Below, in pieces: positions 6,365-60,238 of a DNA stretch of 64,000 nucleotides. The DNA lies in contig JAPLXC010000007.1 in the NCBI GenBank assembly GCA_026396275.1, positions 37,084-101,083 of the forward strand, read 5' to 3'. The DNA is from Candidatus Moraniibacteriota bacterium (lineage in GTDB: Bacteria; Patescibacteriota; Minisyncoccia; Moranbacterales; JAPLXC01). A model generated the notes under the pieces. It was not told the DNA's origin, did no database searches, and saw only the letters and a program-made list of their open reading frames with translations. The first letter of the stretch is position 1. The number at the start of each line of letters is the position of its first letter. A program made the position numbers and the translations under genes.

Positions 6365-6437
6365 AATAACAAAACTTGAAGCTTGAAACGTAAAAATAAA
6401 TTTGTTTCATGTTTTATGTTACATGTTACATGAACTA

Positions 6438-6884: not shown

Positions 6885-6955
6885 TTCACAAAACATGAAA
6901 CATGAAACATGAAACAATTAATGTTACATGTTGTATGCTACATGTTATATGACGT

Positions 6956-7408: not shown

Positions 7409-7493
7409 TAACTATCCTCGCATGCGACATATAGCATAAAACACGCAATAATGGAGAATGTTTTATGTTACATATTTCGTGTTACGTGAAAAT

Positions 7494-7700: not shown

Positions 7701-7772
7701 AATCATGAAACATAAAACACGAAACATGTAACAATAAGTTACAAATGTTTTATGTTGTATGCTACATGGAAT

Positions 7773-19534: not shown

Positions 19535-19538
19535 GGTG

Positions 19539-19844: not shown

Positions 19845-19870
19845 CCTTAAATTCTCAAGTATTTAAGGAT
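19843..19870. promoter_or_regulatory. 28-bp inverted repeat (copy 2) overlapping ArsR start region: candidate autoregulatory operator
   Basis: Identical to 19507..19534. Confidence 0.6.
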
Positions 19871-20062
19871 AGTTTAGTAGTTAGGTGTTTCTTGAAAACT
19901 CCTATTCAACCCAATCCCAATGCCCAAAGGCAAAATCAAAACTCCGGCAAGGATGATTATAGATTTTTTGGAGATGAACATGAACGAAATTTATTTATTA
20001 TATTTGTGCCAGCGACTTGTCCCGAGTTTATTGAGGGAAGCTGGCGCGCCGCTTTCATATTT

Positions 20063-20434: not shown

Positions 20435-20584
20435 TCAAAATTTTTGAGATAAGCTTACCCCGCCTGCCCCGTAGGGAAACTTTGTTTCTCCTTTGGGGTA
20501 GTGAGTCCCTGACTCTACTACTGGGATTATACCACCAAAATAAAAACCGGCCTCATTGCGAGAGCCGGTATAGAAACCGCGAGA

Positions 20585-20869
20585 TTAAAATAGTTTTTCC
20601 TGAATATATTTGATTTTAATGGCTTTTTTCTTTCTCTTTTTCGGCGCGTGACTTTTTTGAATTCGCAGATTGTCTGCTTGTTCAATGGTAGTGCCTTTTC
20701 CGTACTTTCTCGCGGCCATCCTTTTGGCATAAGCGATTGCCATATTTTTCGCCGCCGCTGGAAAATAAGCTTCAAAGATTTTGTTGATAAAGAACTGGTC
20801 GGTTATAAGGATTCCGAGCTTATTGTGCGCTTCAAATCTTCCCGAAGCTTTATAATACTCTGTCTTCAC
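20585..20869 (-). CDS. hypothetical basic protein (GTG start, SD ggagaaagg)
   Basis: 94 aa; C-terminal KKRKKKAIKIKY. Confidence 0.35.
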   Translation of the reverse strand: MKTEYYKASGRFEAHNKLGILITDQFFINKIFEAYFPAAAKNMAIAYAKRMAARKYGKGTTIEQADNLRIQKSHAPKKRKKKAIKIKYIQEKLF

Positions 20870-20891
20870 ATCCTTTCTCCTTTCCTTCTGA

Positions 20892-21389
20892 TTAATTTCT
20901 TGAGCGCCACTCGTTTTCTATGGCCTCTATCTTCGCTTTCTCCTCGCCTAAAATTTGCTTCAGCTTGGTAGGATCATTGGAATAAGTCGGACGTCCGGGA
21001 GTGTTCTCCAGAGTAAACACATTGTCATTATTGGCCGGGAAGGAATCAGCTGCTCCGCCGCCAATAAGAGTGGGGATGCGATTAACAATTCTTAAACCGC
21101 ATTCTGTAGCAACTTTTTCCATAAGATGAGACTTTTCCTTAGGAATGCTTATCATAATCCAGATAATCTCCTCCCACTTAAACGCTTTTAATAAAAACTC
21201 GTCGTTGCTGGGCGTACCGGGGATAAAGTAAGTGTATTCAAGCTTTACTGAGCAGAGCATTACTCCCGGGTGCGGCGGCTTAACCATTCCAACATAATGA
21301 ATATACTTTGAATCCCTGACAAATTTTTTGAGGGATTCATAACTTTTCCCATGATCCATCCTGCCATATCTTTCTCTGCTATTTTCCAT
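20892..21389 (-). CDS. hypothetical protein
   Basis: 165 aa; no family recognised. Confidence 0.4.
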   Translation of the reverse strand: MENSRERYGRMDHGKSYESLKKFVRDSKYIHYVGMVKPPHPGVMLCSVKLEYTYFIPGTPSNDEFLLKAFKWEEIIWIMISIPKEKSHLMEKVATECGLRIVNRIPTLIGGGAADSFPANNDNVFTLENTPGRPTYSNDPTKLKQILGEEKAKIEAIENEWRSRN

Positions 21390-21704
21390 TATCTCCTCCT
21401 TTACAATCCCTCAATGTTTATGGTTTATTGTTAATAAAAAGAACTGGTGCTTAATCTTAGCGCAGTTTACCATTTTGTCAAATAAAAACCAGCCGCTTGG
21501 GGCTGATGGGAAGGTAAGCCTGCCCCGAAGTGAGCCCTGCTCTACTTCTGGGGTTTACCCCGTACCGCCTTACTGGTGCGTGGGTAATTTTTATCCGCCT
21601 TTGGCGGAAATTACGTAATTTTCCAGCCGCCGAATTTCGTGCCAGCAAAGCTGCCGCGCCGCCCAAGATTAATGCAATTTCTCCTAATTTTCTTGTTGGC
21701 CAAG

Positions 21705-22556
21705 TCATAGATTATTTTGCCTTACAATTTCATCGATTCTAGCCTTACTTTTTTTTCTTGTTTCATTTATTTCTTCTTCAAGCTTTTTCATTTCAATAGA
21801 TATTTCATTAGTTAAATTATGAGGATATTTAGCCGCTGCTATCAAATGAACGATTTTAGTAAAAATCGGCTTTTCTTTCATTAATATCCTAGTTTTTACA
21901 ACAATCTTTTTATTTTCACTTTCAAGATCTTCCAAGAAAACTTTTAGCTCTGCTACTTTTTTTATTAAAATCTCAATGTTTATTTTATAAGTTTCAAAAT
22001 CAATATGTTTTTGAATAAATGCTTTTTTTATTTCGCTATAAAATCTATTCGTAGAATTAATCGATCCATTCATTTTATCTACGCTTGTTTCAAAAGAAAA
22101 AACTTCGTTGACTAAATCTAAATTCATTAGATCTACGGATATTTCTTCGTCTAAAGCAAATTCATGTAGAACATTAAAATAAACAAATGGCCTGTTATAT
22201 TCTATTGCGTCTTGGGCAATATTAATGAAATCATCAATTATAAAGATGTTGTCGGAGATGACATTCAAATATCGATTGCAAATTCTTTCAATCTTTACAA
22301 GGGCATTGTAATGCTTAACTTGTCTATCATAAATTCTGGTGAGTGCATCTGCAAGTCTTATAAACAAGAAAGCGAAAAACGCCCCCATGAAAGCACTTAT
22401 TGCGCTGTTGATATATCTGATGTCATTAGAAATGAAGATTTTATTAAAAATAAAAAATCCAAAAACAAATATAAATGAACAAATTAAAGTTAAAAGCAAA
22501 AGTGGATATGTTTTTTTAATACATTCTCTTAATTTTTTTGTTGGCCAGTTATTCAT
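21705..22556 (-). CDS. hypothetical membrane protein with cytoplasmic coiled-coil domain
   Basis: Two N-terminal TM helices then long helical/coiled-coil region; very AT-rich; start overlaps stop of RusA-like gene. Confidence 0.5.
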   Translation of the reverse strand: MNNWPTKKLRECIKKTYPLLLLTLICSFIFVFGFFIFNKIFISNDIRYINSAISAFMGAFFAFLFIRLADALTRIYDRQVKHYNALVKIERICNRYLNVISDNIFIIDDFINIAQDAIEYNRPFVYFNVLHEFALDEEISVDLMNLDLVNEVFSFETSVDKMNGSINSTNRFYSEIKKAFIQKHIDFETYKINIEILIKKVAELKVFLEDLESENKKIVVKTRILMKEKPIFTKIVHLIAAAKYPHNLTNEISIEMKKLEEEINETRKKSKARIDEIVRQNNL

Positions 22557-22557
22557 T

Positions 22558-23022
22558 TTATATCAACCTACTAATCTGCGAGGATATTCTTTTAATGATC
22601 TCTTCGTCCAGTATTTTAACAGATATACGAAAAAAACTTTCTTGTGAATTTATTATAAATGCTTTGTGAGTCCAGAGCATTTTAACTTGGGAGTCATCAA
22701 AATAAACAACCCCTTTAAGTGCATCTAGTATACATTTTGCGCGATTATCTAAATCACATTTTTTATATTCAGTACCTGAATTTATACCATGCACTATTGA
22801 GACAAGGACATTTTTATCTGTTGGAAAAATATTTACATTTTTTAATTCTTTTTTAAGATCTTCTTTTAATTCATTCTCGAATTTATGGGTACTAGCTTTT
22901 TCAATCACAATATTCTTTTCTATTTCACCGTCATACTTATAAGCTATGCTTTTAGATGGTACCAAAGTGTTACCTTGAAGATATACTATTTCTGGATTGA
23001 TAATTTCTTTAAGCTTTCTCAT
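22558..23022 (-). CDS. RusA-family crossover junction endodeoxyribonuclease (Holliday junction resolvase)
   Basis: KKCDLDNRAKCILDALKGVVYFDDSQV matches the RusA catalytic core (D-L-D-N ... LDAL ... DD); start set at internal ATG that overlaps upstream stop (aaaTGAtATG). Confidence 0.7.
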   Translation of the reverse strand: MRKLKEIINPEIVYLQGNTLVPSKSIAYKYDGEIEKNIVIEKASTHKFENELKEDLKKELKNVNIFPTDKNVLVSIVHGINSGTEYKKCDLDNRAKCILDALKGVVYFDDSQVKMLWTHKAFIINSQESFFRISVKILDEEIIKRISSQISRLI

Positions 23023-23023
23023 A

Positions 23024-23191
23024 TCATTTTTTCTTTTTCGCCAAAAATTCAACTCTCACGGATTTTGGAATAAATTTTTTTGCTCTAAAACTTACCTCCT
23101 CGCCCTTTCTAGTATAAAAAATAACTTTTACAGGTTTAGAAACTATCTTAGTCGCTTTAAACGAAATATGTTGTCTTGCTTGTTTTGGCAT
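23024..23191 (-). CDS. small basic protein (55 aa) translationally coupled to RusA-like gene
   Basis: MPKQARQHISFKATKIVSKPVKVIFYTRKGEEVSFRAKKF...; stop 1 nt before RusA ATG. Confidence 0.35.
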   Translation of the reverse strand: MPKQARQHISFKATKIVSKPVKVIFYTRKGEEVSFRAKKFIPKSVRVEFLAKKKK

Positions 23192-23349
23192 AAATTTTAT
23201 CTTAATCAAAAATAAATACTATTAATCTCCTTCATAATTTTATCCGTCTCAACCAGCACGCACTCGGCTTAAATTTTTTCTAGATTTCTCCTAAAGTTGT
23301 TTTTTTATTTCTTGTTCATAGAAAATTATATCTTCTTCATTTTCAAGAG

Positions 23350-23514
23350 CCTTTTTCAATTTCTTGAGATTCCTCGCTAAATTCTCCTACATCCTCACCA
23401 AATTCAACTTTTTGGCCATCCTCAATAAAACCATCATTTTTATCTTTCTCTTCTTGTTTTTCAGAATTCTCATCTTCAAGATCATTTTCTTGATCAATTC
23501 TCATATATTTCACA
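23350..23514 (-). CDS. small highly acidic protein (54 aa), unannotated
   Basis: MRIDQENDLEDENSEKQEEKDKNDGFIEDGQKVEFGEDVGEFSEESQEIEKGS; 15 nt downstream of the preceding membrane gene; below ORF-track cutoff. Confidence 0.3.
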
Positions 23515-23528
23515 AAGATATTATTAGC

Positions 23529-24002
23529 TTAGATTGATAAAACTAACAGTACGACACCTGCAATTAGAAAAATAATTGAAAATTTAAACCACAGAGCAAG
23601 TTCTGAAGATATTTTTTCATTATTAGTGATATCTGTTTCTAATTTTTTATTGAATTTCATTACTAATTTTTCATGAGGCCACTCGAAGCTTTTTTCTATT
23701 AGTTCTTTTAATTTTGGTCCTTGACTATATTTTTTTGACCAAATTGAACAAACAGCAAACAACAAAGAGACAGCAACTAGAAAAAAAGATTTTTTTTGAA
23801 AGCCACTAAGACATGAACTCTTACTGATTAGAAATCCCAATAAAGCAACATCTGCCACAATAATCCAATTAAGCTTATTATTAAGATAATCTATGGCTTT
23901 TTGTTGGCTATTGGAAAATTCTACAATTTTTTCATGAACAAAAAGTGTCTTGTGTAGATCGTCTTTGCTATTATTCTCTTTTTCTTCATTGTTATCCACC
24001 AT
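23529..24002 (-). CDS. hypothetical membrane protein
   Basis: 157 aa, hydrophilic N-terminus then 3-4 TM helices; AT-rich. Confidence 0.5.
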   Translation of the reverse strand: MVDNNEEKENNSKDDLHKTLFVHEKIVEFSNSQQKAIDYLNNKLNWIIVADVALLGFLISKSSCLSGFQKKSFFLVAVSLLFAVCSIWSKKYSQGPKLKELIEKSFEWPHEKLVMKFNKKLETDITNNEKISSELALWFKFSIIFLIAGVVLLVLSI

Positions 24003-24341
24003 ATTCGTTATTCTTTAAATTTAATCTATTGGCAGTCAGCGCTTATATTTCAAAATTTTAATAACTTTTTGAATCGTCTTTTCCAGATTTTTTTGAATTT
24101 CATGCTCCCGCCGCTGAATTTTCCGCCTGATATACTAATTACAGGCAGGCTGTAAATTTTGCGATAGCAATAAATACAGCCTGGTTGGGATTTATTGAGA
24201 GTGGAATACTGTACAAACCCCGGCGAGGATGATTGAAAGTTTTTTAAAATAAACGCGGGCGAAATTTGGGTTTTTTGGATTATGTAACATATGTAATTTT
24301 TCCATCAAAGTTGTATTTTTAATTTCTCTCTCTCATAATTT

Positions 24342-25622
24342 TTAATAGTCAATGTAAAACTTAGTTATTCCGAACCCCTTGTCGTCATCAAACATACCAA
24401 ACTCCCATGGATGTGATGGGTATACCTGTATATTGTTATCTTTTCGTTCAATAAATTTAAAATCACGGGGTGACTGCATGAGAAAATCTTTCTCTTCGCC
24501 GCCTGATGTAAATTGCCTTTCATAAATCGAAAGGGCATTGCACAACATTGCAAAAAGAAATGAACAGAAAATATTACCTCTCGTAATAACTCCCCTCTCT
24601 TTAAAATCATTAAAATATTTCCTGTCTGACTTATTATCAATTTTGAAATACTTTGCTGCCTCTATGCACAATGTAACTCGGAAATCCGGCTCAAGCCCAT
24701 CATCTACCTGATTTTTGTATATAAGATCGGCTTTCCTGATTATTAACTTCAAAAGTCGCATATTTGTCTCCACTCTTTCTACAAACAATCCTTCAAGAAA
24801 ACTAATTATTTGACTCTTTCTGTTTGCACCGGTCCAAACCAATTTATTATTATCCTGTCTATTGAATGAGCCTGTGAATAAATTATTACGAAAAATTTCA
24901 TCAACGAATTTATCAAGCTTTACCTTTTCAGGTTGAAAAAAGTCGAAATAATCAATGCACTTTAAATACGACTCTAAATTTTTATAGTAGTTCTCATTGG
25001 CTATAGGAACAATAACCACAAACTTTTTCTTAAAGCTGTAGGAGTGCAAAAATTGTTTCAATGTTTCCAGAAAAAACACACCCGCATCTCCTGACCTATC
25101 TATATCTTCAACAATAATAAACAGATTGCTATCAGCTTTTTCTACCTGCTCTTTTAAAATTTTCTGTATCTCATCAACTCTTCTTGCTGGAGACGTTTCG
25201 AAAAAATGATTTATGCCTTCAAGAACTGCAAATCCTGGTATTCTAGAAATAGTTTTAATTAATGTTTTTTTATCCTCATTTTGTGTTCCCTGAATTTTTT
25301 TCTCTGTTTCTGCAAAATCTTTCGGACTTATTTCCTTTGAAAAATCTAAAATAAACCCCTCCCACAAATCTTTCCTGTCTGGATATTTCCAAGCATCAAA
25401 CTCTATCCACTTTTCACCGCTTCCTCGCTCGTTCATAACTCGATTTATCATAGTGCTTTTCCCGCTTCCAAAGGGCCCAACCAAAGCAATGATTGAGGAA
25501 GTGGGAAGGGAATCTATTTTCTTAGCAAAACTGGCAACAATGTCAGAAAAACCTAGTAGATCATTGACCTTGCTATGTTCTTTTAATAATTCGTGATTTT
25601 TTACGAAACCTTGATTAGCCAT
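24342..25622 (-). CDS. KAP family P-loop NTPase
   Basis: LVGPFGSGKSTMINRV Walker A, WKYP, LFIIVEDIDRSGD Walker B-like; 426 aa; candidate sigma70 promoter TTGCAA-17-TAATAT about 35 nt upstream. Confidence 0.7.
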   Translation of the reverse strand: MANQGFVKNHELLKEHSKVNDLLGFSDIVASFAKKIDSLPTSSIIALVGPFGSGKSTMINRVMNERGSGEKWIEFDAWKYPDRKDLWEGFILDFSKEISPKDFAETEKKIQGTQNEDKKTLIKTISRIPGFAVLEGINHFFETSPARRVDEIQKILKEQVEKADSNLFIIVEDIDRSGDAGVFFLETLKQFLHSYSFKKKFVVIVPIANENYYKNLESYLKCIDYFDFFQPEKVKLDKFVDEIFRNNLFTGSFNRQDNNKLVWTGANRKSQIISFLEGLFVERVETNMRLLKLIIRKADLIYKNQVDDGLEPDFRVTLCIEAAKYFKIDNKSDRKYFNDFKERGVITRGNIFCSFLFAMLCNALSIYERQFTSGGEEKDFLMQSPRDFKFIERKDNNIQVYPSHPWEFGMFDDDKGFGITKFYIDY

Positions 25623-25745
25623 ATGATTCTATTAAACTCCCATCTCTCCGCTCATTAACTTTGGCAAAAGCAAATTGCAGAGAAATCATATCTTATATTA
25701 ATATCCACAGGGCATATTTGCAAGTATGGTATAATTAATTTAGGA

Positions 25746-25788
25746 AGAGGGCGAATATCTATCTTTTGGATAAAATATTCGCCCCTCT
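25746..25788 (-). terminator. strong hairpin terminator (13-bp perfect stem) downstream of 25790..26107
   Basis: agagggcgaatat ctatcttttggataaa atattcgcccctct. Confidence 0.55.
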
Positions 25789-25789
25789 T

Positions 25790-26107
25790 TTACTTAATCC
25801 CGCATGGGGGATTCTTCTTATTTCGGATGTCTTTTTCAATCTTCAATCGATCTTCTAGAGAATACTTATCGGTTGGCATCCATTTAACTGCGACAGAATA
25901 ACCACCGTGTTTATCCCAACATGGTTTTCTTTCATGTGTCAGCAACCTCGTTCCCGTTTCACCGGATTGTCCAACATCAATAACTGAGTATATCACATTG
26001 AGGATTACGTAAATTGCAGCTCTATCAATCTTAATCTTACCAATTTTATAAGGTCCATCGAAATTATAACCTGCGATTGTAACCATTGGACTTAATTTTC
26101 TAGCCAA
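25790..26107 (-). CDS. hypothetical protein, possible GIY-YIG-like nuclease fold
   Basis: AAIYVILNVIYSVIDVGQSGETGTRLLTHE resembles GIY...YIG...R..H pattern; weak. Confidence 0.35.
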   Translation of the reverse strand: MARKLSPMVTIAGYNFDGPYKIGKIKIDRAAIYVILNVIYSVIDVGQSGETGTRLLTHERKPCWDKHGGYSVAVKWMPTDKYSLEDRLKIEKDIRNKKNPPCGIK

Positions 26108-26238
26108 CTTTTCGGCTGGATTAATAATTATTTAAACCTTAGGGAAATACCGACCTATTTCCCATAGGCACCTGTGGATAACTTGACCTTGTTTAGGTTT
26201 TCTTTAGGTATTATAATATAAGTAGTAAAAAAGTCAAT

Positions 26239-27771
26239 ATGATCTCAAAAAGATTATCAAAAAAACAAAAGGAAGTTCTTGATTTTATTACCGCTTTTCA
26301 ACAAAAGCGCGAGTATTCCCCTTCCCTAGAAGAAATCGCTAAACATTTCAATATTGCAATTCCCACTGCTCACCAACATGTGCAGGTATTAAAAAGAAAA
26401 GGATTTATAAGCGCAAGAAAGGGGGAAAAACGATCTATCTCAGTAAAAGAAAAAGCTTCAATGGTACAAGTCCCGCTGCTTGGTGTTATTACTGCTGGCC
26501 AGCCGATTGAAGCGATAGAAAATAAAGAGACAATTGCTGTACCACAAAATAAACTCTCCCATTCCGGAGAATTTTATGCTTTACGAGTTTTGGGCAATAG
26601 CATGATTGATGAAAATATAAAAGACGGCGATATTGTTTTAGTAAAAAAACAAGAAGTTGCAGAAAATGGACAAAAAGTCGTTGCTTTAATTGATAACTAT
26701 GAAGCAACACTGAAAAAATTTTATAAGGAAAGAGGACACATTCGGTTGCAACCAGCTAATAAGAACATTGAACCAATAATTATAAAAAGGGATAGAGAAC
26801 TAACTATTCAGGGCATTGTAATAGATGTAATTAAAAATGAAGAGGAATTGCAAGCGGAAGAAATTTTAACTGCAGGAAAGGTTAAAAGACACTTAAAACT
26901 TCCTCTTAATAAAATTATTTTAGGAGACGCTGTTAGAGAATTAAGAAAATTACCGGATGAAAGTTGCGATATTATTATTATCGACCCGCCTTATAATATC
27001 GGAAAGGATTTCGGAAATAATATTGATAAAAGAGAATTAAGCGAATATATTGAATGGAGCAAAAAATGGATTAATGAATCTATAAGAGTAATGAAATCAA
27101 CTGGTACAATGTTTATTTACGGATTTAGTGAAATTTTAGCGTACTTGTCAGTTGAAATTCCTATAAATAAGCGATGGCTCATTTGGCACTATACTAACAA
27201 AAATGTTGCATCTTTAAATTTTTGGCAAAGAAGCCACGAAGCAATTATTTGCGCCTGGAAAGAAAAACCAATTTTCAACCGGGACGAAGTGAGAGAGCCA
27301 TATACTGAAGGATTTCTAAACGGCGCCGCTGGAAAAGTACGTAAAGGAACTATGGGAAGATTCAGCCGAGGTGGACAAGAAACTGTTTATAATGCACACG
27401 AAGGTGGCGCGTTACCAAGAGACGTTATAAAAATACCCGCTCTAGCAGGAGGAGCGGGAATGGTTGAAAGGTGGTTTTTATGCAAAACATGCAATGACGT
27501 TTTTGAGCCACGTGAATTAAAAAAACACCAAAATCATGAGATTATAAAACATCCGACACAAAAACCCTTGGAACTTTCAAAAAAACTTATAAAATCAGCC
27601 TCCTCAAGCAAAGAAGGCGTTATTTTGGTACCATTCGTCGGCAGCGGTTCAGAATGCGTCGCAGCCAAAGAACTTGGTAAAAATTATCTTGGTTTTGAAT
27701 TAAACCCAGATTATGTAAAGTTGGCCGAAGAGTGGTTAAAATCTACAAAGACTGCTCCTAAGTTATTTTAA
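26239..27771 (+). CDS. LexA-like repressor (wHTH + S24 peptidase) fused to N6/N4 DNA methyltransferase (beta class, DPPY then FxGxG)
   Basis: N-term: KQKEVLDFI...VPLLGVITAGQP (Ala-Gly site), GNSM catalytic Ser, VVALIDNYEATLKKF catalytic Lys; C-term: IIIDPPYNIGKDF (motif IV) and VPFVGSGSECVAAKELGKNYLGFEL (motif I). Confidence 0.85.
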   Translation: MISKRLSKKQKEVLDFITAFQQKREYSPSLEEIAKHFNIAIPTAHQHVQVLKRKGFISARKGEKRSISVKEKASMVQVPLLGVITAGQPIEAIENKETIAVPQNKLSHSGEFYALRVLGNSMIDENIKDGDIVLVKKQEVAENGQKVVALIDNYEATLKKFYKERGHIRLQPANKNIEPIIIKRDRELTIQGIVIDVIKNEEELQAEEILTAGKVKRHLKLPLNKIILGDAVRELRKLPDESCDIIIIDPPYNIGKDFGNNIDKRELSEYIEWSKKWINESIRVMKSTGTMFIYGFSEILAYLSVEIPINKRWLIWHYTNKNVASLNFWQRSHEAIICAWKEKPIFNRDEVREPYTEGFLNGAAGKVRKGTMGRFSRGGQETVYNAHEGGALPRDVIKIPALAGGAGMVERWFLCKTCNDVFEPRELKKHQNHEIIKHPTQKPLELSKKLIKSASSSKEGVILVPFVGSGSECVAAKELGKNYLGFELNPDYVKLAEEWLKSTKTAPKLF

Positions 27772-28470
27772 TTTTGAATCAATTTCTTCTTTCTTTTGTT
27801 CAAAAATGTAGGGCTCAAAAATAACAAAGCCATTCGAGAATACACGAAGCATTTTTGTGTCTAGATAGTTTTTCTTAAAAGTAAGATATGATTTTAAAAA
27901 TCCCGTCCCTCTTTTCTTTTTAGGATGCAAAATGGTTTTAAGATCAGGTACTTCATAGCGGATTGGAATTGTTATGCCCGGAATCGGCTCTTTCGGCTTA
28001 TGACTACGCCCCATTACACCACTATTTGATTTCTTCTTTACATCATAATTAATAACTAATTCCCTATATTGTACCTGAATGTCAGCCCCTTTATGATCAA
28101 GTTCCTCTGACATATTGACCGTATTTTTTCCAAATACTGACTCGGCAACATATCCTGCATGCATTTGAGTAATAAGCCCTGCCCATGTCCTATATATACG
28201 CGCCTCGATTCCTTTCTTAAAACAACTAGGACACATCCCAATTTTCTTTCGAAACTCGCTGAGTTTTTTTCTATTTTCCCTTCTATAAATATCATAGAAG
28301 GCGTTAAAATCAACAAAGTTCTTTTCATCCCAGTAAATTCGATATAACAGCTTAATAGCTTGAATATTCTTTGGCAGATTCATTTCCACTATTTTAATAG
28401 AACTATACTTTTCTCTGTAAGCACTTAGGTTAACTGTTTTCAAAAAATCACTAAATTTTTGTAGATACAT
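27763..28470 (-). CDS. putative restriction endonuclease partner (PD-(D/E)xK-like), convergent and overlapping with methyltransferase gene
   Basis: GADIQVQYRELVINYDVKKK fits D-x(n)-D-x-K; convergent 9-nt overlap with MTase 3' end as in many type II RM pairs; assignment is inferential. Confidence 0.4.
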   Translation of the reverse strand: MYLQKFSDFLKTVNLSAYREKYSSIKIVEMNLPKNIQAIKLLYRIYWDEKNFVDFNAFYDIYRRENRKKLSEFRKKIGMCPSCFKKGIEARIYRTWAGLITQMHAGYVAESVFGKNTVNMSEELDHKGADIQVQYRELVINYDVKKKSNSGVMGRSHKPKEPIPGITIPIRYEVPDLKTILHPKKKRGTGFLKSYLTFKKNYLDTKMLRVFSNGFVIFEPYIFEQKKEEIDSKLK

Positions 28471-28514
28471 ATATTTAACAAATAATTTACTTTTTCCAAT
28501 CTTTTAAATATTTC

Positions 28515-29108
28515 TTACAAATTTTTGATTTCCTCTACGATTTCCGGGAAGTGTTCTTGGTTGAAATGCTGGCGGTCTTCAAAAATATGCGCTTTAACAC
28601 TTGGTAAATCTTTCTTATATCTTTCAACTTCATTAAAAGGCACAATTGGATCATCCTTGCTTTGATACAAATGAATTATTGGGCATTGCTTTTCAACTCC
28701 TTCGAGCGATTTTTTAAAAACAAAATCACTAATCTCATGGGTTTCTGAATGTGGCGGAGCTACCAAAAAAAGAGCTTTTATTTTTTTAGGAAATTCGTTT
28801 TCAGATAAATATTTAACCAGAAAGATGCCTCCTTGCGAATGTCCGATTAAAATCGGTTCACTTTCCATAAATGGAAACATTCTTTTAAACCATATTTTCC
28901 ATTCCTCATACCTGGCATTATTTGAATTGGGCATACGGGGCGCAAGCACTTGGAATTCTCCTCCCAATTCCGATTGCAGGTGAATTTTCCAATCTTTTTT
29001 GGGCAGAAATGATTCAATCGTTACTTCCTGATTTTTAAGATCATCCAAAAATTTTTTGTACGAATCAAACGAACTTCCGCCATGTATAATAATAACTTGT
29101 TGTTTCAT
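28515..29108 (-). CDS. alpha/beta hydrolase, YdeN/RBBP9-like (second, divergent paralog)
   Basis: VIIIHGGSS ... LIGHSQGG. Confidence 0.6.
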   Translation of the reverse strand: MKQQVIIIHGGSSFDSYKKFLDDLKNQEVTIESFLPKKDWKIHLQSELGGEFQVLAPRMPNSNNARYEEWKIWFKRMFPFMESEPILIGHSQGGIFLVKYLSENEFPKKIKALFLVAPPHSETHEISDFVFKKSLEGVEKQCPIIHLYQSKDDPIVPFNEVERYKKDLPSVKAHIFEDRQHFNQEHFPEIVEEIKNL

Positions 29109-29273
29109 ACTGTAAATTTTTTACTTTCTCTAATCCCATCCTTCGCCATAAAGCTTCCACCGACGCCAAGGCTTTGGCGGACAAGTCGGAAGGACATGCC
29201 TAATTATTTACTTCTATAATCTCTAATCACCCCGTAAAATCCGCGGCGGATAACGGGGCAAGCCAACCCTCCC

Positions 29274-29293
29274 CCCAGTTAAATAATACTTCC
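29274..29293 (+). repeat. 20-nt direct repeat cccagttaaataatacttcc (copy 1)
   Basis: Exact second copy at 29905..29924; the pair brackets gene 29327..29806. Confidence 0.7.
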
Positions 29294-29326
29294 GCAAATT
29301 AGCGGGACAGGCATTCAGGGTAAAAT

Positions 29327-29806
29327 CTAAATTTGCCGGGTTTTCAGATTTTGATACTCTAAGTAAGTTAATGTTACGACAAAAATGTCCAAAATGGTTA
29401 AGACAATCAGCCAGGCAGAATGAGAAATTGAATAGCGATACATCTGGTAGAAAATAAATATTCCAAATACGGCGATTGCGAGCGGATAAGCCCACAATTT
29501 TTTTCTAAAAAGGGCGGCAATCAGAAATATTTTTATGAGCCCGTGGCTCAAGAGGAACAAACCTCCAAAAATTTGGCTGCTCACGGAAAAGCCGCGGGCC
29601 GCGTGAACCAGAAAATTGGCAAAGAGGTCTTTCGGATCCTCGCTTAATTCGTTTTGAGTAAGGAGTCTTACCAAATAGTTAAGGGTTTCAGGGCGAATGA
29701 AAAACAGCAGTATTCCGCCGATAATTTCCAAAATTCCATTCAGCCCTTTAAGAAGGATGCCGACCCGAAACGTGTCATGGATTACCTTGGCATACATTTT
29801 ATCCAT
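29327..29806 (-). CDS. hypothetical membrane protein (DUF2127-like)
   Basis: 159 aa, 4 TM helices. Confidence 0.45.
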   Translation of the reverse strand: MDKMYAKVIHDTFRVGILLKGLNGILEIIGGILLFFIRPETLNYLVRLLTQNELSEDPKDLFANFLVHAARGFSVSSQIFGGLFLLSHGLIKIFLIAALFRKKLWAYPLAIAVFGIFIFYQMYRYSISHSAWLIVLTILDIFVVTLTYLEYQNLKTRQI

Positions 29807-29904
29807 GAATAAAGTATAAATTCTTTACCGCAAAAACACCAGCCACTAACCACTTCCCAACATCGTACGCCAAGAAATAAAAACTAAGGGGCAGGCGGGG
29901 TAAA

Positions 29905-29924
29905 CCCAGTTAAATAATACTTCC
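29905..29924 (+). repeat. 20-nt direct repeat cccagttaaataatacttcc (copy 2)
   Basis: See 29274..29293. Confidence 0.7.
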
Positions 29925-29926
29925 TT

Positions 29927-31105
29927 TTATTTTTCAAACAATTTTAAGTATCCAGAAAACACAAATAACCGGTTTCTTTTAAATCCGGTGATTTCTTTAA
30001 AAATCCCGATCTTTTCAAATTGTTTGACCAGCGTGCTTGCTGAAGGATGAGTTATTTGTAATCTTTTAGCTATCTGTTTAGTGTTTAAGATGGGCTGAGA
30101 ATACAAATGTTTCAGCAGTTCTTGTCCTATTTTTGCTCTTTTACCAAGAGACATAATTTTTTGTTCGGATTGATGTCTAAGAGCAATAATTTTTTCAAAC
30201 GTCAATTTGCCGTTTTTTGCCGTTTCCGCAACACCAACCAAAAAAAACTTGATCCAGTGTTCCAAGTCATTTGAAGTTCTCACAACGGTAAGCGCATCGT
30301 AATAAGCACCTTTGTTTCTTTCAAAGAAATCCGATAAATATAGCGTTGGTTTTGAGAGAATCCTCTGTGACACAAGATAGAGAGTAATAAGTAATCGGCC
30401 AATGCGACCATTGCCATCTAAAAATGGATGTATGGTTTCAAATTGATAATGACTAATAGCAATCTTAATCAGGTGAGGCATATCAATTTTCTTATTATGC
30501 CAAAACTTTTCTAAGTCGCTAAGCAAATACGGCATTTCATTGGGATGCGGCGGAATGAATACGGCGTCTTTCAATGTTGCGCCGCCAATCCAGTTTTGAC
30601 TGGTGCGTATTTCTCCGGAATCTTTATGTTTGCCGCGAACACCAGTTAATAAAATCTTATGAGTATCTTTAAGAAGTCGCATTGAAAGCGGAAGTTTTTC
30701 TAATTCAGCAATTGCATAATCCATTGCCTTTGTATAATTTTGAACTTCTGCCCAATCATCTCTTCTTTCGGGATTGATTTCTTCTTTAGGTAAAAGCGCC
30801 TCATCCATTCCCGTTTTAGTCCCTTCAATTCTACTGGACGTTGTTGCCTCTTTGAAAACATGCATGCGGATAAAAAAATCCACATCAGGCACAAGTAAAG
30901 AATAAGCATTCAATTCTCCCAGGTATCGTGTCGCTTCTTCAAGCAATACGTCAATCTTAGGGTCCAACCATTTAAAAGCCACATTGATCAGAGACGGGGA
31001 AAAACTTTTATATTCATATTGCTGTTTATATACGCCTGACTTAAATGTTGTATTTTTCATAATAATTGACTTTACATAAGAATATTTATATTTAAAGTTT
31101 AGCAC
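29927..31105 (-). CDS. Fic family protein (Fic/DOC domain with C-terminal winged helix)
   Basis: [14 protein letters not shown] Fic motif. Confidence 0.85.
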
Positions 31106-31344
31106 CTAACTTTACATATGTCAATTCATGTTAAAAGTTGGATTGTGGATAAAAGCGGGCAACCGCCTGCCTGCCCGCTTCGCAGTGAGGCGACCAGGCC
31201 TCGTAAAATTGACACCATAACGGGGTAAACAATCCATATCAGACGCTATATTATCCGGTAAAATCACGTGTTCAAAATACCAAACTATATCACCTAGTAA
31301 TTGCGGGTAATTACGAATTTTATGACGCCTTCTTTACGAATCTA

Positions 31345-31722
31345 TCAAAAATCATCCTCGCTTTTTTCATGAAAATATTTAAACCTCAATTCGCTGTAGC
31401 GCGGGTCGCTGACTATCTTATTAATTTTTTTTGATGTGTGTTTAATCTGAACATACAAGTCGCGCAATTCTTTTTCCATAGCCGCGATGAGATTTTTGCC
31501 GGTTTTCAGTTCAACGTAATTAAGCTTTTTTCTCATTTCAAAATCGGCCTGCTCCTTTTTTACCCTTTCAAGAATCCGCTTCTTTTCCGTATACTCTTTT
31601 TTGAGCGCAAGATACGCGCCGATCTCCATTTTTACGGCCTCTAGCTCCTCACGAAATTCCTCGTCGCCTTTTTCGCTTTTTTCACCAGCCGGAAACTGGA
31701 AATTTTCTAATTTTTGAGCCAT
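31345..31722 (-). CDS. hypothetical helical protein (downstream of AbrB/MazE-like gene)
   Basis: 125 aa, charged coiled-coil-like. Confidence 0.4.
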   Translation of the reverse strand: MAQKLENFQFPAGEKSEKGDEEFREELEAVKMEIGAYLALKKEYTEKKRILERVKKEQADFEMRKKLNYVELKTGKNLIAAMEKELRDLYVQIKHTSKKINKIVSDPRYSELRFKYFHEKSEDDF

Positions 31723-31749
31723 AAATTTACTTCTTCCAATCTTTAATCA

Positions 31750-31785
31750 CAATCCTGCCTCTAAACGCGCAATAATCGCGCAAGA
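31750..31785. promoter_or_regulatory. three direct CGCGCAA repeats at 11-nt spacing (iteron-like)
   Basis: aacgcgcaataatcgcgcaagaaatcgcgcaatag. Confidence 0.4.
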
Positions 31786-31799
31786 AATCGCGCAATAGT

Positions 31800-31976
31800 T
31801 TATCTATTTTTATTCCTATAATCCCTAATAACAATTCCTCCCTTAATCCTTTTCACCCTCACTCGCTGTTTTTCCTTCCAGCCGAGCGCATCGGTCATCT
31901 CTTTAGGTAAAGTCGTGGCCAAGCTCGTTTTGCCCAGCCGCACCAATTTTCTCGTGTTTTTGTCCTTTAATTTCAT
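31800..31976 (-). CDS. AbrB/MazE/SpoVT-family DNA-binding protein (antitoxin-like), 58 aa, unannotated
   Basis: MKLKDKNTRKLVRLGKTSLATTLPKEMTDALGWKEKQRVRVKRIKGGIVIRDYRNKNR: swapped-hairpin signature (VRLGKT.L..P......LG...G..V.V); palindrome atatacttaagtatat in its leader. Confidence 0.55.
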   Translation of the reverse strand: MKLKDKNTRKLVRLGKTSLATTLPKEMTDALGWKEKQRVRVKRIKGGIVIRDYRNKNR

Positions 31977-31982
31977 AGGCGA

Positions 31983-31998
31983 ATATACTTAAGTATAT
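31983..31998. promoter_or_regulatory. perfect 16-bp palindrome atatacttaagtatat between promoter and AbrB-like start: candidate operator
   Basis: Seen directly. Confidence 0.5.
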
Positions 31999-32016
31999 AC
32001 TTGGGTATATACCTCC

Positions 32017-43780: not shown

Positions 43781-44227
43781 ATGGCTACCCTTGCCGTCAA
43801 TAAGCGCGCCCATTTTGATTACGAAATTTCGGATAAATTCGAAGCGGGTTTGGTTTTGACTGGCCAGGAAGTGAAGTCCGCCAAGACCGGTCATATTTCG
43901 CTCAAGGGCAGTTTTGTGACAGTTCACGGCAACGAGTTATATCTTACCAACGCTAATATCCCTCCCTATCGGCATGCGGGCGACGTGAAAAATTACGACC
44001 CGACAAGATCCCGAAAACTGCTGCTCAAAAGGACGGAAATCAAATCACTTATCGGAAAAGCCCGCGTTTCCGGCTTGACGCTGGTGCCGATTCGTGTGTA
44101 TACTAAGAAGCGACTCGTGAAACTGGAATTCGGCGTCGGACGCGGGAAGAAAGAATTTGATAAAAGAGAAAAGATTGCCAAGAGAGAAGTAAAAAGAAGA
44201 ATGGAAAGGGAACTTAAAAATTTCTAA
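43781..44227 (+). CDS. smpB: SsrA-binding protein SmpB
   Basis: VLTGQEVKS...KGSFV ... conserved SmpB core, basic C-terminal tail. Confidence 0.9.
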   Translation: MATLAVNKRAHFDYEISDKFEAGLVLTGQEVKSAKTGHISLKGSFVTVHGNELYLTNANIPPYRHAGDVKNYDPTRSRKLLLKRTEIKSLIGKARVSGLTLVPIRVYTKKRLVKLEFGVGRGKKEFDKREKIAKREVKRRMERELKNF

Positions 44228-44282: not shown

Positions 44283-44681
44283 GGGGTTGTCTAGCTTCGA
44301 CATTTTGCACTTTAAAAAATTTGCAAACCGATTATGACAGTCATATCGTTAAACTGCCTGTCAAAATTATAAGTGCAAACTTATACTCAAAAGTAAAGGC
44401 CAGCATCGCGCAAGCGTTTGCTCCGGCTTTTGCTACCGCTTTGGCTTAATTTAAGCTTTAGCCATCGGACTATTGACTCCTTATAAATAGCAACCGGTGC
44501 CAACCATAAGGATAGCCCGCCTGATATTTTCTAAGTTAAGCGGGCAAAATTAAATTAGAAATAGATTAAAAAGATTTTGCTTGTTTATTACTTTTTAGTC
44601 AAAATAAATAAACCGGCTAAGTTTGTAGAAAATTTTTTAAAAGCAACAATGGACGCGAGTGCAATTCTCGCCAACTCCACC
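44283..44681 (+). ncRNA. ssrA: putative tmRNA (SsrA), ~399 nt, tag ORF ...AQAFAPAFATALA*
   Basis: 5' GGGGTTGtctagCTTCGAC resembles tmRNA 5' acceptor/D-loop; 3' GGACGCGAGtgcaattCTCGCcaactccACC = T-arm + complementary acceptor strand (one G-U) + ACC; in-frame gcg caa gcg ttt gct ccg gct ttt gct acc gct ttg gct taa at 44408..44449; adjacent to smpB. Confidence 0.65.
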
Positions 44682-44682
44682 T

Positions 44683-45228
44683 ATGCGCAGACGCTACGGG
44701 TTTCGACCCAAACCAAAACCAATTTCCCCCCAGCACCGGGCCAACGAACGCATCCGCGCCTGGAAGGTGCTGGTTATTGACGAAACCGGAAAAAACCTTG
44801 GGGAGATGGATACTCAAGAAGCGCTGGCTCTTGCCCGCGAGCGGGAGCTTGATTTGGTCGAGGTCTTTCCTAAAGCCGATCCGCCTGTCTGCCGCTTAAT
44901 GGACTTCGGAAAATTCCAGTATCAACAATCAAAACAGGACCGGCTGGCTAAAGCCAAGCAAAAGAAAGTGGAACTCAAAGGAATCCGGATAGGACTGCGC
45001 ACCGACGAGCATGATTTAACTTTCAAAAGAAATCAGGCGGAAAAATTCCTTAACAAGGGAAGCAAAATAAAAATAGAAATTCTGTTAAGAGGAAGGGAAA
45101 AAGCTCACCCGAATTTAGCCAGAGAGAGTTTGCTTAAGTTCATCAAACAAATTCAGACCCCTCATCGGATTGAAGAGGAAATAAAACGCTTTCCGGAGGG
45201 ATTCAATACAATTATCGCTCCGGAATAA
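44683..45228 (+). CDS. infC: translation initiation factor IF-3 (alternative ATT start at 44722 possible)
   Basis: ANERIRAWKVLVIDETGKNLG ... IF3 N- and C-domain conservation; ORF-track start 44659 would lie inside the tmRNA. Confidence 0.85.
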   Translation: MRRRYGFRPKPKPISPQHRANERIRAWKVLVIDETGKNLGEMDTQEALALARERELDLVEVFPKADPPVCRLMDFGKFQYQQSKQDRLAKAKQKKVELKGIRIGLRTDEHDLTFKRNQAEKFLNKGSKIKIEILLRGREKAHPNLARESLLKFIKQIQTPHRIEEEIKRFPEGFNTIIAPE

Positions 45229-45319
45229 GCCATAAAACACGTAACATGAAACATGTAACACAGTAAAGTCGTTAAACGGAAAAATCAAATGTTATATGTT
45301 TTATGTTTCATGAATAATT
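45229..45319 (+). repeat. ~90-nt palindromic intergenic element (catgaaacatgtaaca ... tgtta(t/c)atgtt...tttcatg), copy A, abutting rpmI start
   Basis: Near-identical copy at 45518..45617; shorter relatives upstream of rpsF, ssb, rpsR, efp. Confidence 0.7.
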
Positions 45320-45517
45320 ATGCCTAAACTAAAGACCAATAAAGCAGTTTCAAAGAAAATAAGGGTGACCGGAAGGGGGAAAGCCATGAGGCGCTATACC
45401 AAGCAAAATCATTTTAATTCCCGCGAAACGGGAAAGTTCAAGCGTTTCAAAAGAAAAGATCAGCGGCTTTCTGAATATGACGAAAAGAATGTTTTAAGAG
45501 CCCTGCCATACAATTAA
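45320..45517 (+). CDS. rpmI: 50S ribosomal protein L35
   Basis: MPKLKTNKAVSKKIRVTGRGK... typical bL35. Confidence 0.9.
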   Translation: MPKLKTNKAVSKKIRVTGRGKAMRRYTKQNHFNSRETGKFKRFKRKDQRLSEYDEKNVLRALPYN

Positions 45518-45617
45518 AAATCATGAAACACTTAACATGAAACATGTAACAAAGTAAAGTCGTTAAACGGAAAAACCAAATGTTACATGTTATGTGTTTT
45601 ATGCTCCATGAATAATT
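45518..45617 (+). repeat. ~90-nt palindromic intergenic element, copy B, abutting rplT start
   Basis: Shares loop agtaaagtcgttaaacggaaaaa(t/c)caaa with copy A. Confidence 0.7.
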
Positions 45618-45965
45618 ATGACTAGAATCAAACGCGGCGTTGCCGCTTCAAAACGAAGAAAAAAAGTCTTAAAAATGGCCAAAGGTTTCCGCTGGCGCCG
45701 AAAATCACACTACCAGGCGGCTAAAGAAGCGCTGCTCAAAGCCGGAAAATATGCCTATCGTGACCGTCGGGCTAAAAAAAGAACGGCAAGATCGCTTTGG
45801 ATTCTGCGTCTCAATAATGCCGTGCGCAACTTCGGCCTCACCTACCGGGAATTTATTAAAATCGCCGGGAGCAAAAAAATTCAGCTGGACCGCAAGGTAT
45901 TGTCCCAGCTGGCTGTTGAACATCCTGCTGTTTTTAAAAAGTTGATTGAAGAGATAAAAAAGTAA
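45618..45965 (+). CDS. rplT: 50S ribosomal protein L20
   Basis: MTRIKRGVAASKRRKKVLK...RDRRAKKR typical bL20. Confidence 0.9.
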   Translation: MTRIKRGVAASKRRKKVLKMAKGFRWRRKSHYQAAKEALLKAGKYAYRDRRAKKRTARSLWILRLNNAVRNFGLTYREFIKIAGSKKIQLDRKVLSQLAVEHPAVFKKLIEEIKK

Positions 45966-46424
45966 TTATTCCGATTTGGAAAAACTTCCTGCTTCTGCAG
46001 GAAGTTTTTTGTTTCGCCAATTCCGCCACAATAAAAAAAGATTCCAAATTACCAGACCGGCCAATATTCCCAGCGCGTCAATTCCAACATCCAGAATTTT
46101 TCCTTCTCTTCCAGCCACAAAGACCTGATGAATTTCATCTGAAATAGCATAGAGAAGTGAAGCAAAAAATGCCCAATGGTATAATTCGGTCTTTTGGTAA
46201 AAATAATGCATCCTAAAAATACGCAGCCAAAAAACTGCTAAAATGACATATTCAAAAAAATGAGCCCCTTTGCGCTGGGCGTAAAACCAGAAGTCGCGGC
46301 TTCCTGCGTCAGCTGATCCGGAAAGAGAAGAAAAATAAAAAATGATCCCCATCCAGAGTAGAAGGGGTAAATAATAATATAATACCAATCGTCTTTTGTT
46401 ATTTAATAGTGCGTTTTGTTTCAT
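45966..46424 (-). CDS. VanZ-like family membrane protein
   Basis: 4 TM helices; HFFEY ... SDEIHQVFVAGREGKILDVGID pattern. Confidence 0.5.
   Translation of the reverse strand: MKQNALLNNKRRLVLYYYLPLLLWMGIIFYFSSLSGSADAGSRDFWFYAQRKGAHFFEYVILAVFWLRIFRMHYFYQKTELYHWAFFASLLYAISDEIHQVFVAGREGKILDVGIDALGILAGLVIWNLFLLWRNWRNKKLPAEAGSFSKSE
45981..46012 (+). terminator. rho-independent terminator after rplT
   Basis: aaaaacttcctgcttctgcaggaagtttttt (8-bp perfect stem, T6). Confidence 0.7.
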
Positions 46425-59386: not shown

Positions 59387-60238
59387 TTATACCATATTTT
59401 TCCTCCTTAACAAAAAGGTAGCTGTGGATAAAATAATTAGCGCTATTGATAATATTTGCCCCAGCGTAAGCCAATTATTTGCCAAAATTGCTCCTTTCTC
59501 CGGCTCGCGGAAAAATTCTATAAAAAATCTAAAAAAACCGTAGCCGAAAAGATATAACATAAAGCATGGAACATGGAACACTTTATTTTTATATTTTATT
59601 CCATTTCTCAATGCCCAAAGAATGGCAAACAGCACTATTCCCTCCAGAAATGCTTCATAAAGTTGCGAAGGGTGGCGCAGCAGTCCCAGTCCATCAGCCG
59701 GAAAGTACATTCCCCACGGCAGATTTGTCGGCACGCCATAGAGCTCGCCGTTTAAGAAATTTCCTATCCGACCGAAAAAGTAGCCGGCGGGAACGGCGGG
59801 AATGACAAAATCGGCCAGCTGCCAAAAATTAAGATTATTTCTTTTGGCGAACACAAGGCCGGCAATTATCACTCCGACAAGCCCGCCAAAGTAGCTCATT
59901 CCGTAAAAACCGGTATACTCAAAGCCCGCAATCTGCAATCCGTAACCCTCTATGCTAAACGGCAAAAAAATTTCCAAAGGATGTTGAAGATAATACGGCA
60001 AACCATAAAAAATAACATAGCCCAGCCGCGCGCCAATAAGTAATCCTATAATCAAATAAATCATTAAATCCGGAATGGAAATTTTATTTGGCGACTCTTT
60101 TATTCTATATTTAAGTAATAAATACACTGTCAGGAAACCCGCTAAATACATAATTGAGTACCACTTAACAGAAAAAGATCCGATTGAAAAAACAATCGGA
60201 TTGATGTGTTCAGGAATATGTTGATACCATTCAAGCAT
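59387..60238 (-). CDS. lgt: prolipoprotein diacylglyceryl transferase
   Basis: GRIGNFLNGELYG signature, multi-TM. Confidence 0.85.
   Translation of the reverse strand: MLEWYQHIPEHINPIVFSIGSFSVKWYSIMYLAGFLTVYLLLKYRIKESPNKISIPDLMIYLIIGLLIGARLGYVIFYGLPYYLQHPLEIFLPFSIEGYGLQIAGFEYTGFYGMSYFGGLVGVIIAGLVFAKRNNLNFWQLADFVIPAVPAGYFFGRIGNFLNGELYGVPTNLPWGMYFPADGLGLLRHPSQLYEAFLEGIVLFAILWALRNGIKYKNKVFHVPCFMLYLFGYGFFRFFIEFFREPEKGAILANNWLTLGQILSIALIILSTATFLLRRKNMV

Follow-up and report, generated by a model that had tools for sequence, protein, structure and literature searches.

The question raised by this locus is what two near-identical hairpins are doing on either side of rpmI, the gene for ribosomal protein L35. 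They lie in a 64,000-nucleotide (nt) stretch of a Candidatus Moraniibacteriota genome (contig JAPLXC010000007.1, positions 37,084 to 101,083), hereafter the window, where one fills the spacer between infC and rpmI and the other that between rpmI and rplT, the gene for L20. The original prediction had proposed a copied binding site through which L20 controls its own operon or, alternatively, a co-opted member of a repeat family seen elsewhere in the window. We found that the two hairpins belong to a family of intergenic elements whose arms are inverted tandem arrays of a 7-nt unit, and that elements of the same architecture and different sequence recur at these junctions in other genomes of the candidate phyla radiation (CPR). 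The rpmI-flanking pair itself is most likely the product of recent local duplication or gene conversion rather than an L20-specific device.

Each copy occupies a whole spacer: copy 1 takes up the one that separates the infC stop codon from the rpmI ATG (45320), and copy 2 the one that separates the rpmI stop codon from the rplT ATG (45618). The near-identity noted for the pair is real, with 91% of alignment columns identical, and the conserved 28-nt loop had been quoted correctly. A 23-nt core of this loop, AGTAAAGTCGTTAAACGGAAAAA, occurs exactly twice in the window when 3 mismatches are allowed, and not at all in 100 shuffles. Both spacers were predicted to fold as long imperfect hairpins, copy 1 at -22.1 kcal/mol (z -4.0; 1 of 200 shuffled sequences was as stable) and copy 2 at -24.2 kcal/mol (z -3.9; none of 200). 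Their stems comprise 18 to 24 pairs and so provide the intercistronic RNA duplex, approximately 20 bp long or longer, that is expected of an RNase III site. What had escaped the first reading of the sequence is that the arms are made of tandem heptamers. In copy 1, CATAAAA-CACGTAA-CATGAAA-CATGTAA stands opposite TGTTATA-TGTTTTA-TGTTTCA-TG, and the general arm units are CATGAAA/CATGTAA set against the inverted TTTCATG/TTATATG. The sole internal indel between the copies measures 7 nt (ATGTTAC), that is, one repeat unit. Neither terminal inverted repeats nor target-site duplications were visible at the twin copies when the sequence was read.

The same arms are found outside the infC-rpmI-rplT operon. 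A search with the arm motif returned 23 matches in the window against 0.48 expected. They fell into six clusters, all of which lie on the + strand immediately 5' of an ATG, namely those of rpsF, ssb, rpsR, efp, rpmI, and rplT. One consensus fits the six copies, consisting of TCATGAAACATGTAACATGAAACATGTAACAA, a loop, AATGTTACATGTTATATGTTTTATGTTACATGAA, a linker of 4 to 7 A/U-rich nt, and the ATG, and all six fold as hairpins (Table 1). A covariance model was built from them and run on the window, where it found no convincing further copy. The 23-nt loop insert is peculiar to the rpmI-flanking pair. The proposal that the pair belongs to the repeat family at 6.4 to 7.8 kb was therefore borne out by the shared consensus and covariance model; for co-option of the pair in L20 control, we found no evidence. 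Six copies in 64 kb are the multicopy, imperfect intergenic palindromes that would be expected of elements of the repetitive extragenic palindrome (REP) or MITE (miniature transposable element with inverted repeats) kind.

Two further observations concern the heptamers. The sole other match of the covariance model, at positions 59548 to 59620, was weak (E 0.026) and falls within the coding region of lgt, on the strand opposite to it. This segment consists of degenerate heptamers (CATAAAG CATGGAA CATGGAA CA) with weak hairpin potential and is probably due to chance. Small antisense open reading frames starting with MFHV(T/K/S)CFM were rejected as genes; they arise simply because the heptamers are read in reverse complement, and they run antisense across real genes.

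Table 1. Positions in the window of the heptamer hairpins, their parts, and the genes around rpmI
Feature	Position	Strand	Remarks
Heptamer hairpin copy 1	45229..45319 (91 nt)	+	infC-rpmI spacer; covariance model 72.1 bits, E 2.6e-12
Copy 1 5' arm	45231-45260		CATAAAA CACGTAA CATGAAA CATGTAA CA
Copy 1 loop	45261-45289		23-nt insert within, 45262-45284
Copy 1 3' arm	45290-45312		TG TTATATG TTTTATG TTTCATG
Copy 1 linker	45313-45319		AATAATT; reaches rpmI ATG
Heptamer hairpin copy 2	45518..45617 (100 nt)	+	rpmI-rplT spacer; covariance model 84.8 bits, E 6.6e-15
Copy 2 5' arm	45522-45551		CATGAAA CACTTAA CATGAAA CATGTAA CA
Copy 2 loop	45552-45580		23-nt insert at 45553-45575
Copy 2 3' arm	45581-45610		One heptamer more than copy 1
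Copy 2 linker	45611-45617		AATAATT; reaches rplT ATG
Family member	6367..6437	+	Before rpsF (ATG 6438); 67.9 bits; strong 3' array TTTCATG TTTTATG TTACATG TTACATG, 5' arm degenerate
Family member	6885..6955	+	Whole rpsF-ssb spacer (ssb ATG 6956); 84.6 bits
Family member	7418..7493	+	ssb-rpsR spacer (rpsR ATG 7494); 69.1 bits
Family member	7701..7772	+	Whole rpsR-efp spacer (efp ATG 7773); 82.3 bits
smpB	43781..44227	+	First gene of probable transcription unit
tmRNA gene (ssrA)	44283..44682	+	146.5 bits
infC (IF3)	44683..45228	+	N-terminus MRRRY conserved in relatives
rpmI (L35)	45320..45517	+
rplT (L20)	45618..45965	+
Intrinsic terminator after rplT	45979..46010	+	14-bp stem, then U-run; -22.9 kcal/mol, z -5.8

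For comparison, the infC-rpmI and rpmI-rplT spacers were taken from 82 related CPR genomes, the loci of which carry L-numbers. The L20 protein of the window is 100% identical to that of a Candidatus Moranbacteria metagenome-assembled genome in NCBI. Identity to any other L20 does not exceed 83%, and the sequences of GTDB species representatives (Moranbacteria and other Patescibacteria) reach 79%. Spacer length across the 82 genomes ranged from 0 to approximately 270 nt. The rpmI-rplT spacer measured at least 50 nt in 40 genomes, and a strong hairpin was present in 20 of these 40, compared with 1 after shuffling; 12 of the 20 had a 7- or 8-nt period. At the infC-rpmI junction, 38 spacers were at least 50 nt long, of which 12 contained a strong hairpin, 7 of them 7/8-periodic. 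The unit sequence varies from genome to genome. Units in rpmI-rplT spacers include CAGTAAT/TAGTTAC (L011), AGCTAAAA, and CATGGAA/CTCCATG (L024, in which the last unit is the ATG of L20 itself), among others; TAGCTTAT/AAGCTAAA is the unit of L007, AGCTAGGR that of L002, and GGAATTT-type units occur in L035 and L048. The units differ even between adjacent spacers of one genome in L002 and L082. No loop motif shared across genomes at the rpmI junctions was apparent on inspection of the 82-genome spacers. Hence it is the architecture that recurs between genomes and not the sequence. A common meaning of the unit was sought in stop codons in all frames, in AUGs, and in GGA or Shine-Dalgarno (SD)-like cores, each of which fits some units and fails others.

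The elements are not restricted to ribosomal operons. A survey of arrays in 648 kb of CPR loci yielded 49 period-7 arrays in intergenic sequence, compared with 9 in coding and 2 in shuffled intergenic sequence; the corresponding numbers for period 8 were 26, 2, and 1. An inverted partner was present for 39 of 85 arrays, and at some loci (e.g., L002 rpmI, L012 rplT, and rpsF of the window) there is only a direct array, adjoining the ATG. Altogether, 83 tandem-repeat hairpins were gathered from all loci, with a median stem of 29 pairs, a median loop of 22 nt, and an arm GC content of 27%. A pattern scan of metagenomes with CATGWAACATGWAACA uncovered many more hairpins of like build on unrelated contigs. 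In this pattern-selected set, the genes 3' of the hairpins were gatA (twice), ligA, HU (twice), serS, and genes for a penicillin-binding protein, a glycosyltransferase, a HIT protein, an M50 protease, and thioredoxin.

Of 71 hairpins that could be classified by the orientation of their neighbors, 54 lie in co-directional, 11 in convergent, and 6 in divergent spacers. In co-directional spacers, the median gap was 5 nt from the upstream stop codon to the hairpin and 12 nt from the hairpin to the start codon. It should be noted that the statistic for proximity of arrays to start codons (48 to 60%) is weak, its 25% baseline being inflated by in-frame internal ATGs; the statements on position made here rely on distances measured within spacers and, in the window, on starts that were verified with Pfam. 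Many of the hairpins other than these 54 flank the gene for transfer-messenger RNA (tmRNA). In at least nine genomes (L005, L009, L018, L022, L032, L044, L045, L047, and L052), one stands directly between the smpB stop codon and the tmRNA 5' end, and it starts 1 to 5 nt past the tmRNA 3' end in L002, L008, L011, L049, and L052 and approximately 30 nt past it in L007. The hairpins therefore mark the unit boundaries of transcripts that are probably polycistronic, whether the unit is protein coding or an RNA.

The twin character of the rpmI-flanking pair recurs as well. Twins were compared in the 28 genomes in which both spacers measured 50 to 260 nt. In 10 of these, the similarity between the two spacers exceeded the 98th percentile of between-genome comparisons, and it was very high in four (L048, L068, the window, and L007). 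Other neighboring noncoding pairs at the same loci were as similar in only 3 of 37, 4 of 39, and approximately 1 of 37 cases. Such twins are most simply explained by frequent gene conversion, the palindromes being separated by only 200 nt. The copies are so alike that, in the minimum-energy fold of the whole 426-nt region (-100.3 kcal/mol, z -4.7), each 5' arm pairs with the 3' arm of the other copy, and the L35 cistron is thereby enclosed. The quasi-palindromic loop cores (CGUUAAACG) likewise pair with each other. Alternative pairing of the twins, as modeled here, may conceivably be put to regulatory use. At another locus (L178, positions 4000 to 4094 and 4842 to 4931), hairpins with near-identical 5' arms (CATGTAACATGAAGCATATAACATATAACAT) flank a gene of no known function encoding 243 amino acids; twin elements are therefore not restricted to rpmI.

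The expression signals around the operon bear on how its genes are translated. The order smpB-ssrA-infC-rpmI-rplT was kept in all relatives scanned. A promoter-like sequence, TTTTCA-18-TATAAT, ends at 43774, 6 nt ahead of the smpB ATG, which suggests a leaderless smpB transcript. The infC ATG at 44683 is located 1 nt past the end of the tmRNA match (…CUCCACCU followed by AUG), and 3' processing of tmRNA would therefore yield an almost leaderless infC mRNA. All gene starts of the window were considered (e.g., 43781, 14903, 13324, and 43545). SD-like sites precede 7 of the 58 genes, which equals the random rate (11%), and five of the seven have a full GGAGG. A TATAAT-like box ending 4 to 12 nt before the ATG was found for 11 of the 58 genes, compared with 5.6% at random, suggesting that leaderless transcripts are widespread in this Moranbacteria genome. 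Given the position of the infC ATG at the tmRNA 3' end and this SD-poor, leaderless context, smpB-ssrA-infC-rpmI-rplT is probably a single transcript that needs processing. A scan for intrinsic terminators did not flag the heptamer elements, whose arms have a GC content of approximately 27%.

Family membership, architecture, position, and lability of the hairpins are observed directly. As to their role, action at the RNA level, through coupling or processing, is inferred as the most likely. Our preferred reading is that they constitute a lineage-wide class of intergenic hairpins with fast turnover that serves as RNA-level punctuation; with identity and role taken jointly, we give it about an even chance of being right, and any specific mechanism deserves much less confidence than that. 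According to this reading, the arms, as inverted tandem arrays of a 7-nt and sometimes 8-nt unit, would change by whole units, consistent with slippage, and copies would spread or be homogenized locally. The elements start a few nucleotides past the upstream stop codon or tmRNA 3' end and stop a few nucleotides before the next start, so placed that a stem of approximately 20 to 30 bp ending 4 to 7 nt from the AUG would hinder free entry of the 30S subunit. Two routes can be envisaged from there. A ribosome terminating 3 to 10 nt before the 5' arm could open the stem at its base, thus freeing the start codon for coupling or reinitiation. Alternatively, an endonuclease could cut the transcript, either RNase III in the stem or an RNase E/Y-type enzyme in the A/U linker, which would leave a hairpin-protected 3' end upstream and a near-leaderless cistron downstream.

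Several results weigh against a punctuation role. L201 is the closest relative represented by a long contig, with 83% identity in L20; there the hairpin is absent from both rpmI junctions, and about half of the long spacers lack one. The hairpins are therefore dispensable. Those beside the tmRNA gene cannot serve translational coupling. Co-directional spacers hold 54 of the 71 hairpins, only a modest enrichment given that 65% of all spacers measuring 40 nt or more are of this type. Selection on an RNA helix of the sense strand would be expected to favor G.U pairs over A.C mismatches. With symmetric scoring on this strand, we counted 71 G.U pairs and 115 A.C mismatches; G.U exceeded A.C in 16 individual hairpins and A.C exceeded G.U in 27. 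Since G.U is not above A.C, the helix of the sense RNA bears no wobble mark of selection. A G.U bias that had been considered as proof of such a helix appeared with asymmetric scoring and vanished or was reversed with symmetric scoring.

The absence of a G.U excess, the modest co-directional enrichment, and the quick gain and loss therefore make a functionless by-product or selfish repeat a serious rival, which we consider the less likely of the two readings. Slippage would generate the arrays, template switching would turn them into palindromes, and local duplication or gene conversion would spread them; the elements would persist, in the manner of REP or MITE sequences, only through the tolerance of spacers that lack SD sites. 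The high lability of the hairpins, missing from the closest relative and built of different units in different genomes, fits this explanation, as do twins of 91 to 97% identity, which point to recent copying, and changes in whole units. All spacer types are occupied roughly in proportion, and the function of the downstream gene follows no pattern. However, elements of 60 to 120 nt would then have been tolerated between essential, highly expressed genes of small, compact genomes, and a helix of 20 to 30 bp placed 4 to 7 nt from start codons should affect initiation. Unrelated sequences have repeatedly filled the same junctions in independent lineages, as in 20 of the 40 long rpmI-rplT spacers. 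Moreover, the polarity of the arms is nonrandom, an A-rich 5' arm with a T-rich 3' arm being commoner than the reverse (52 versus 13), and neither terminal inverted repeats nor target-site duplications were seen on reading the twin copies.

A bolder version of a functional role, in our view rather improbable, is that the hairpins are a CPR-specific stand-in for SD-based internal initiation. The fold would bring the upstream stop codon (a median of 5 nt from the stem) beside the downstream AUG (a median of 12 nt away, 4 to 7 nt in the window) and so could permit reinitiation across a spacer of 80 to 130 nt, in a bacterial analogue of ribosome shunting; alternatively, cleavage could create leaderless cistrons. 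Pairing of the rpmI twins, which would loop out the L35 cistron, could then set the L35:L20 ratio in place of an L20 operator.

The heptamers may also be considered as binding sites. The closest described analogue is the TAACTGA heptamer, which forms direct repeats in marine Beggiatoaceae, some cyanobacteria, and Bacteroidetes (MacGregor 2015, PMC4679880). Its sets contain 2 to 6 copies and end a few nucleotides before SD-less starts, also inside ribosomal-protein operons; the function is unknown, with a post-transcriptional role proposed and a single-strand RNA-binding protein suggested (PMC4679880). The arrays are direct, with only one inverted case in 170 sets, and are not predicted to form structures (PMC4679880). 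Tandem 7-nt units ending a few nucleotides from an SD-less start codon are common to both systems. They differ in that one fixed unit is used genome-wide there and many units here (CATGAAA/CATGTAA in the window), in that the arrays here are usually inverted and form a hairpin of 20 to 40 bp (z approximately -4 in the window), and in phylum. On this model, the CPR arrays would be occupied by a protein that binds single-stranded RNA (cold-shock, S1, or CsrA-like) and covers about 7 nt, with the opposite arm as its competitor. The 7-nt period and the place at SD-less starts match the TAACTGA repeats (PMC4679880), and some loci have only a direct array beside the ATG, including rpmI of L002, rplT of L012, and rpsF of the window. 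Yet units that differ between genomes and between adjacent spacers (L002 and L082) ill fit one sequence-specific protein, and the 39 of 85 arrays with an inverted partner are unlike the direct, predicted-unstructured TAACTGA arrays. We regard such a binding array as improbable.

The remaining systems to which the hairpins can be compared share fewer of their traits. STRR heptanucleotide repeats were reportedly described by Mazel in 1990. A slippage origin has been proposed for long simple-sequence repeats of heptanucleotides (Mrazek 2007 as cited in PMC4679880). A 7-nt period dominates their intergenic tandem repeats, as it does here with a period peak of 7 to 8, whereas theirs are direct, lack hairpins, and have no set relation to gene boundaries. 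Hairpins transcribed from palindromes are also known from REP and bacterial interspersed mosaic elements (BIME) and from Correia/NEMIS elements, which can stabilize the upstream mRNA or be cut by RNase III. These are likewise multicopy imperfect palindromes within transcription units, but they have a fixed family sequence, with GC-rich stems in REP and with terminal inverted repeats and target duplications in Correia elements, mostly follow genes, and are not built of short tandem units. We know of no transposase associated with the heptamer hairpin elements. Long stem-loops exactly between the cistrons of a polycistronic RNA, which would separate neighboring genes in their expression or couple them, have precedents in the intercistronic RNase III sites of the phage T7 early region and in the mRNA structure that couples E. 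coli rplT translation to rpmI. The sequences of those hairpins are unrelated, and the stems described here are AT rich and have periodic mismatches. No description of such hairpins in CPR bacteria was found in full-text searches, the coverage of which is incomplete, so that this is no proof of novelty.

We now return to the L20 operator, in which L20 (or L35) would bind the loop or hairpin at both junctions and repress translation of rpmI and rplT; from the sequence evidence, we consider it very unlikely. The location fits the logic of E. coli, where control acts at the rpmI translation start, and with the L20_leader family (RF00558) the hairpins share the operon and a structured RNA beside rpmI. 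The 23-nt loop insert unique to the two copies, the fact that 10 of 28 genomes have near-identical twins on the two sides of rpmI, well above other neighboring spacers, and the long-range fold that the whole region can adopt around rpmI are also in its favor. However, comparison with the Rfam L20_leader model gave no match in the window at the gathering threshold, none at E≤10 between 44200 and 46100, and none in the loci of 28 relatives. The only Rfam families found in the window were tmRNA and a tRNA; weak miRNA-like and snoRNA-like matches (E>0.5) were dismissed as noise. An operator for L20 should be specific to its operon, and the arms belong to a family present at four non-L20 loci of the window (rpsF, ssb, rpsR, and efp); hairpins of like build stand at unrelated genes on other CPR contigs. 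Nor is the element conserved in related genomes, being missing from the closest relative with a long contig and having no motif in common among the 82 genomes. Loops without a common motif, although L20 is 65 to 83% identical, do not sit easily with mimicry of the conserved L20 site in 23S rRNA, which is the helix 40-41 junction; the window contains no 23S rRNA. The proposal of a copied autoregulatory site for L20 is thus not supported; essentially both findings that would speak against it, a lack of similarity to L20-binding sites and occurrence at nonribosomal loci, were made.

Other features near these genes in CPR relatives were noted in passing. Long nonrepetitive spacers are present in other CPR lineages, such as the rpmI-rplT spacers of L042 and L043 (approximately 150 nt), the infC-rpmI spacers of L042 and L058, and those of L049 and L050. 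Such spacers are conserved between genomes (e.g., GGGACTTTATAAT…ATTATAAAGTCCGA in L042 and L043), look like structured RNAs, and had no Rfam match. They may be better candidates for L20 or L35 regulatory leaders than the heptamer hairpins. In L201, the region between tmRNA and infC (about 8990 to 9140) contains a long-range inverted repeat, ATACCATTTCTAACCAACTACTAC … CCAGTAGTTAGTTAGAAATGGTAT, which encloses a loop of approximately 100 nt and is followed by TTGTTATAATTAAAATATG, a leaderless-type promoter for infC.

A role at the DNA level, as an operator array for a transcription factor or as internal promoters or terminators that give each gene its own unit, is highly improbable, for although leaderless promoters are common in the window, palindromic symmetry suits DNA binding, and copy 2 has a weak promoter-like match (9 of 12) across its 5' arm and loop, that match is at chance level and weaker still in copy 1, no consistent -10 box lies at the right (leaderless) distance from the ATGs, the 7-bp period is out of helical phase, the unit is not conserved between genomes, and the elements have no terminator-like GC-rich stem with U-tract, the real terminator of rplT being quite different.

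Elsewhere in the window, three regions deserve mention. In the region from 26239 to 28470, a protein of 510 amino acids is a fusion of a LexA DNA-binding domain, an S24 peptidase, and an N6/N4 DNA methylase. It is encoded tail to tail with a TaqI-like restriction endonuclease (27763 to 28470, - strand). The pair resembles a restriction-modification system in which a self-cleaving repressor module of the LexA type is attached to the methylase. The divergent intergenic region at 2041 to 2127, between a gene of the tetrapyrrole-methylase family and an unknown open reading frame, contains four 12-bp palindromes of the form TTAAC-NN-GTTAA (TTAACGAGTTAA, GTTAACGAGTTA, TTAACCCGTTAA, and GAACCCGTTAAC), which look like an operator array. 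From approximately 13400 to 32000, the - strand carries small open reading frames with unusually long spacers, many of them without a Pfam match. This region includes RusA, a KAP-family NTPase, a SET-domain protein, Fic, two serine-hydrolase-family proteins, and the restriction-modification pair and may be a mobile or variable island.

The CPR, or Patescibacteria, account for a large share of bacterial diversity, and gene expression in these organisms is almost uncharted. The window has few SD sites and numerous promoters of the leaderless type, and its infC start directly adjoins the tmRNA 3' end. Against this background, a hairpin recurs at the boundaries of expression units with constant architecture and variable sequence. 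If the hairpins are functional, they would show how internal cistrons of CPR bacteria are translated or how their polycistronic RNAs are cut, and they would provide a testable role for heptamer repeats, which have long been noted in bacteria and remained unexplained. If they are not, they would represent a clear case of palindromes growing by whole-unit slippage in streamlined genomes, as well as a caution against reading twin structures at ribosomal genes as autoregulatory operators.

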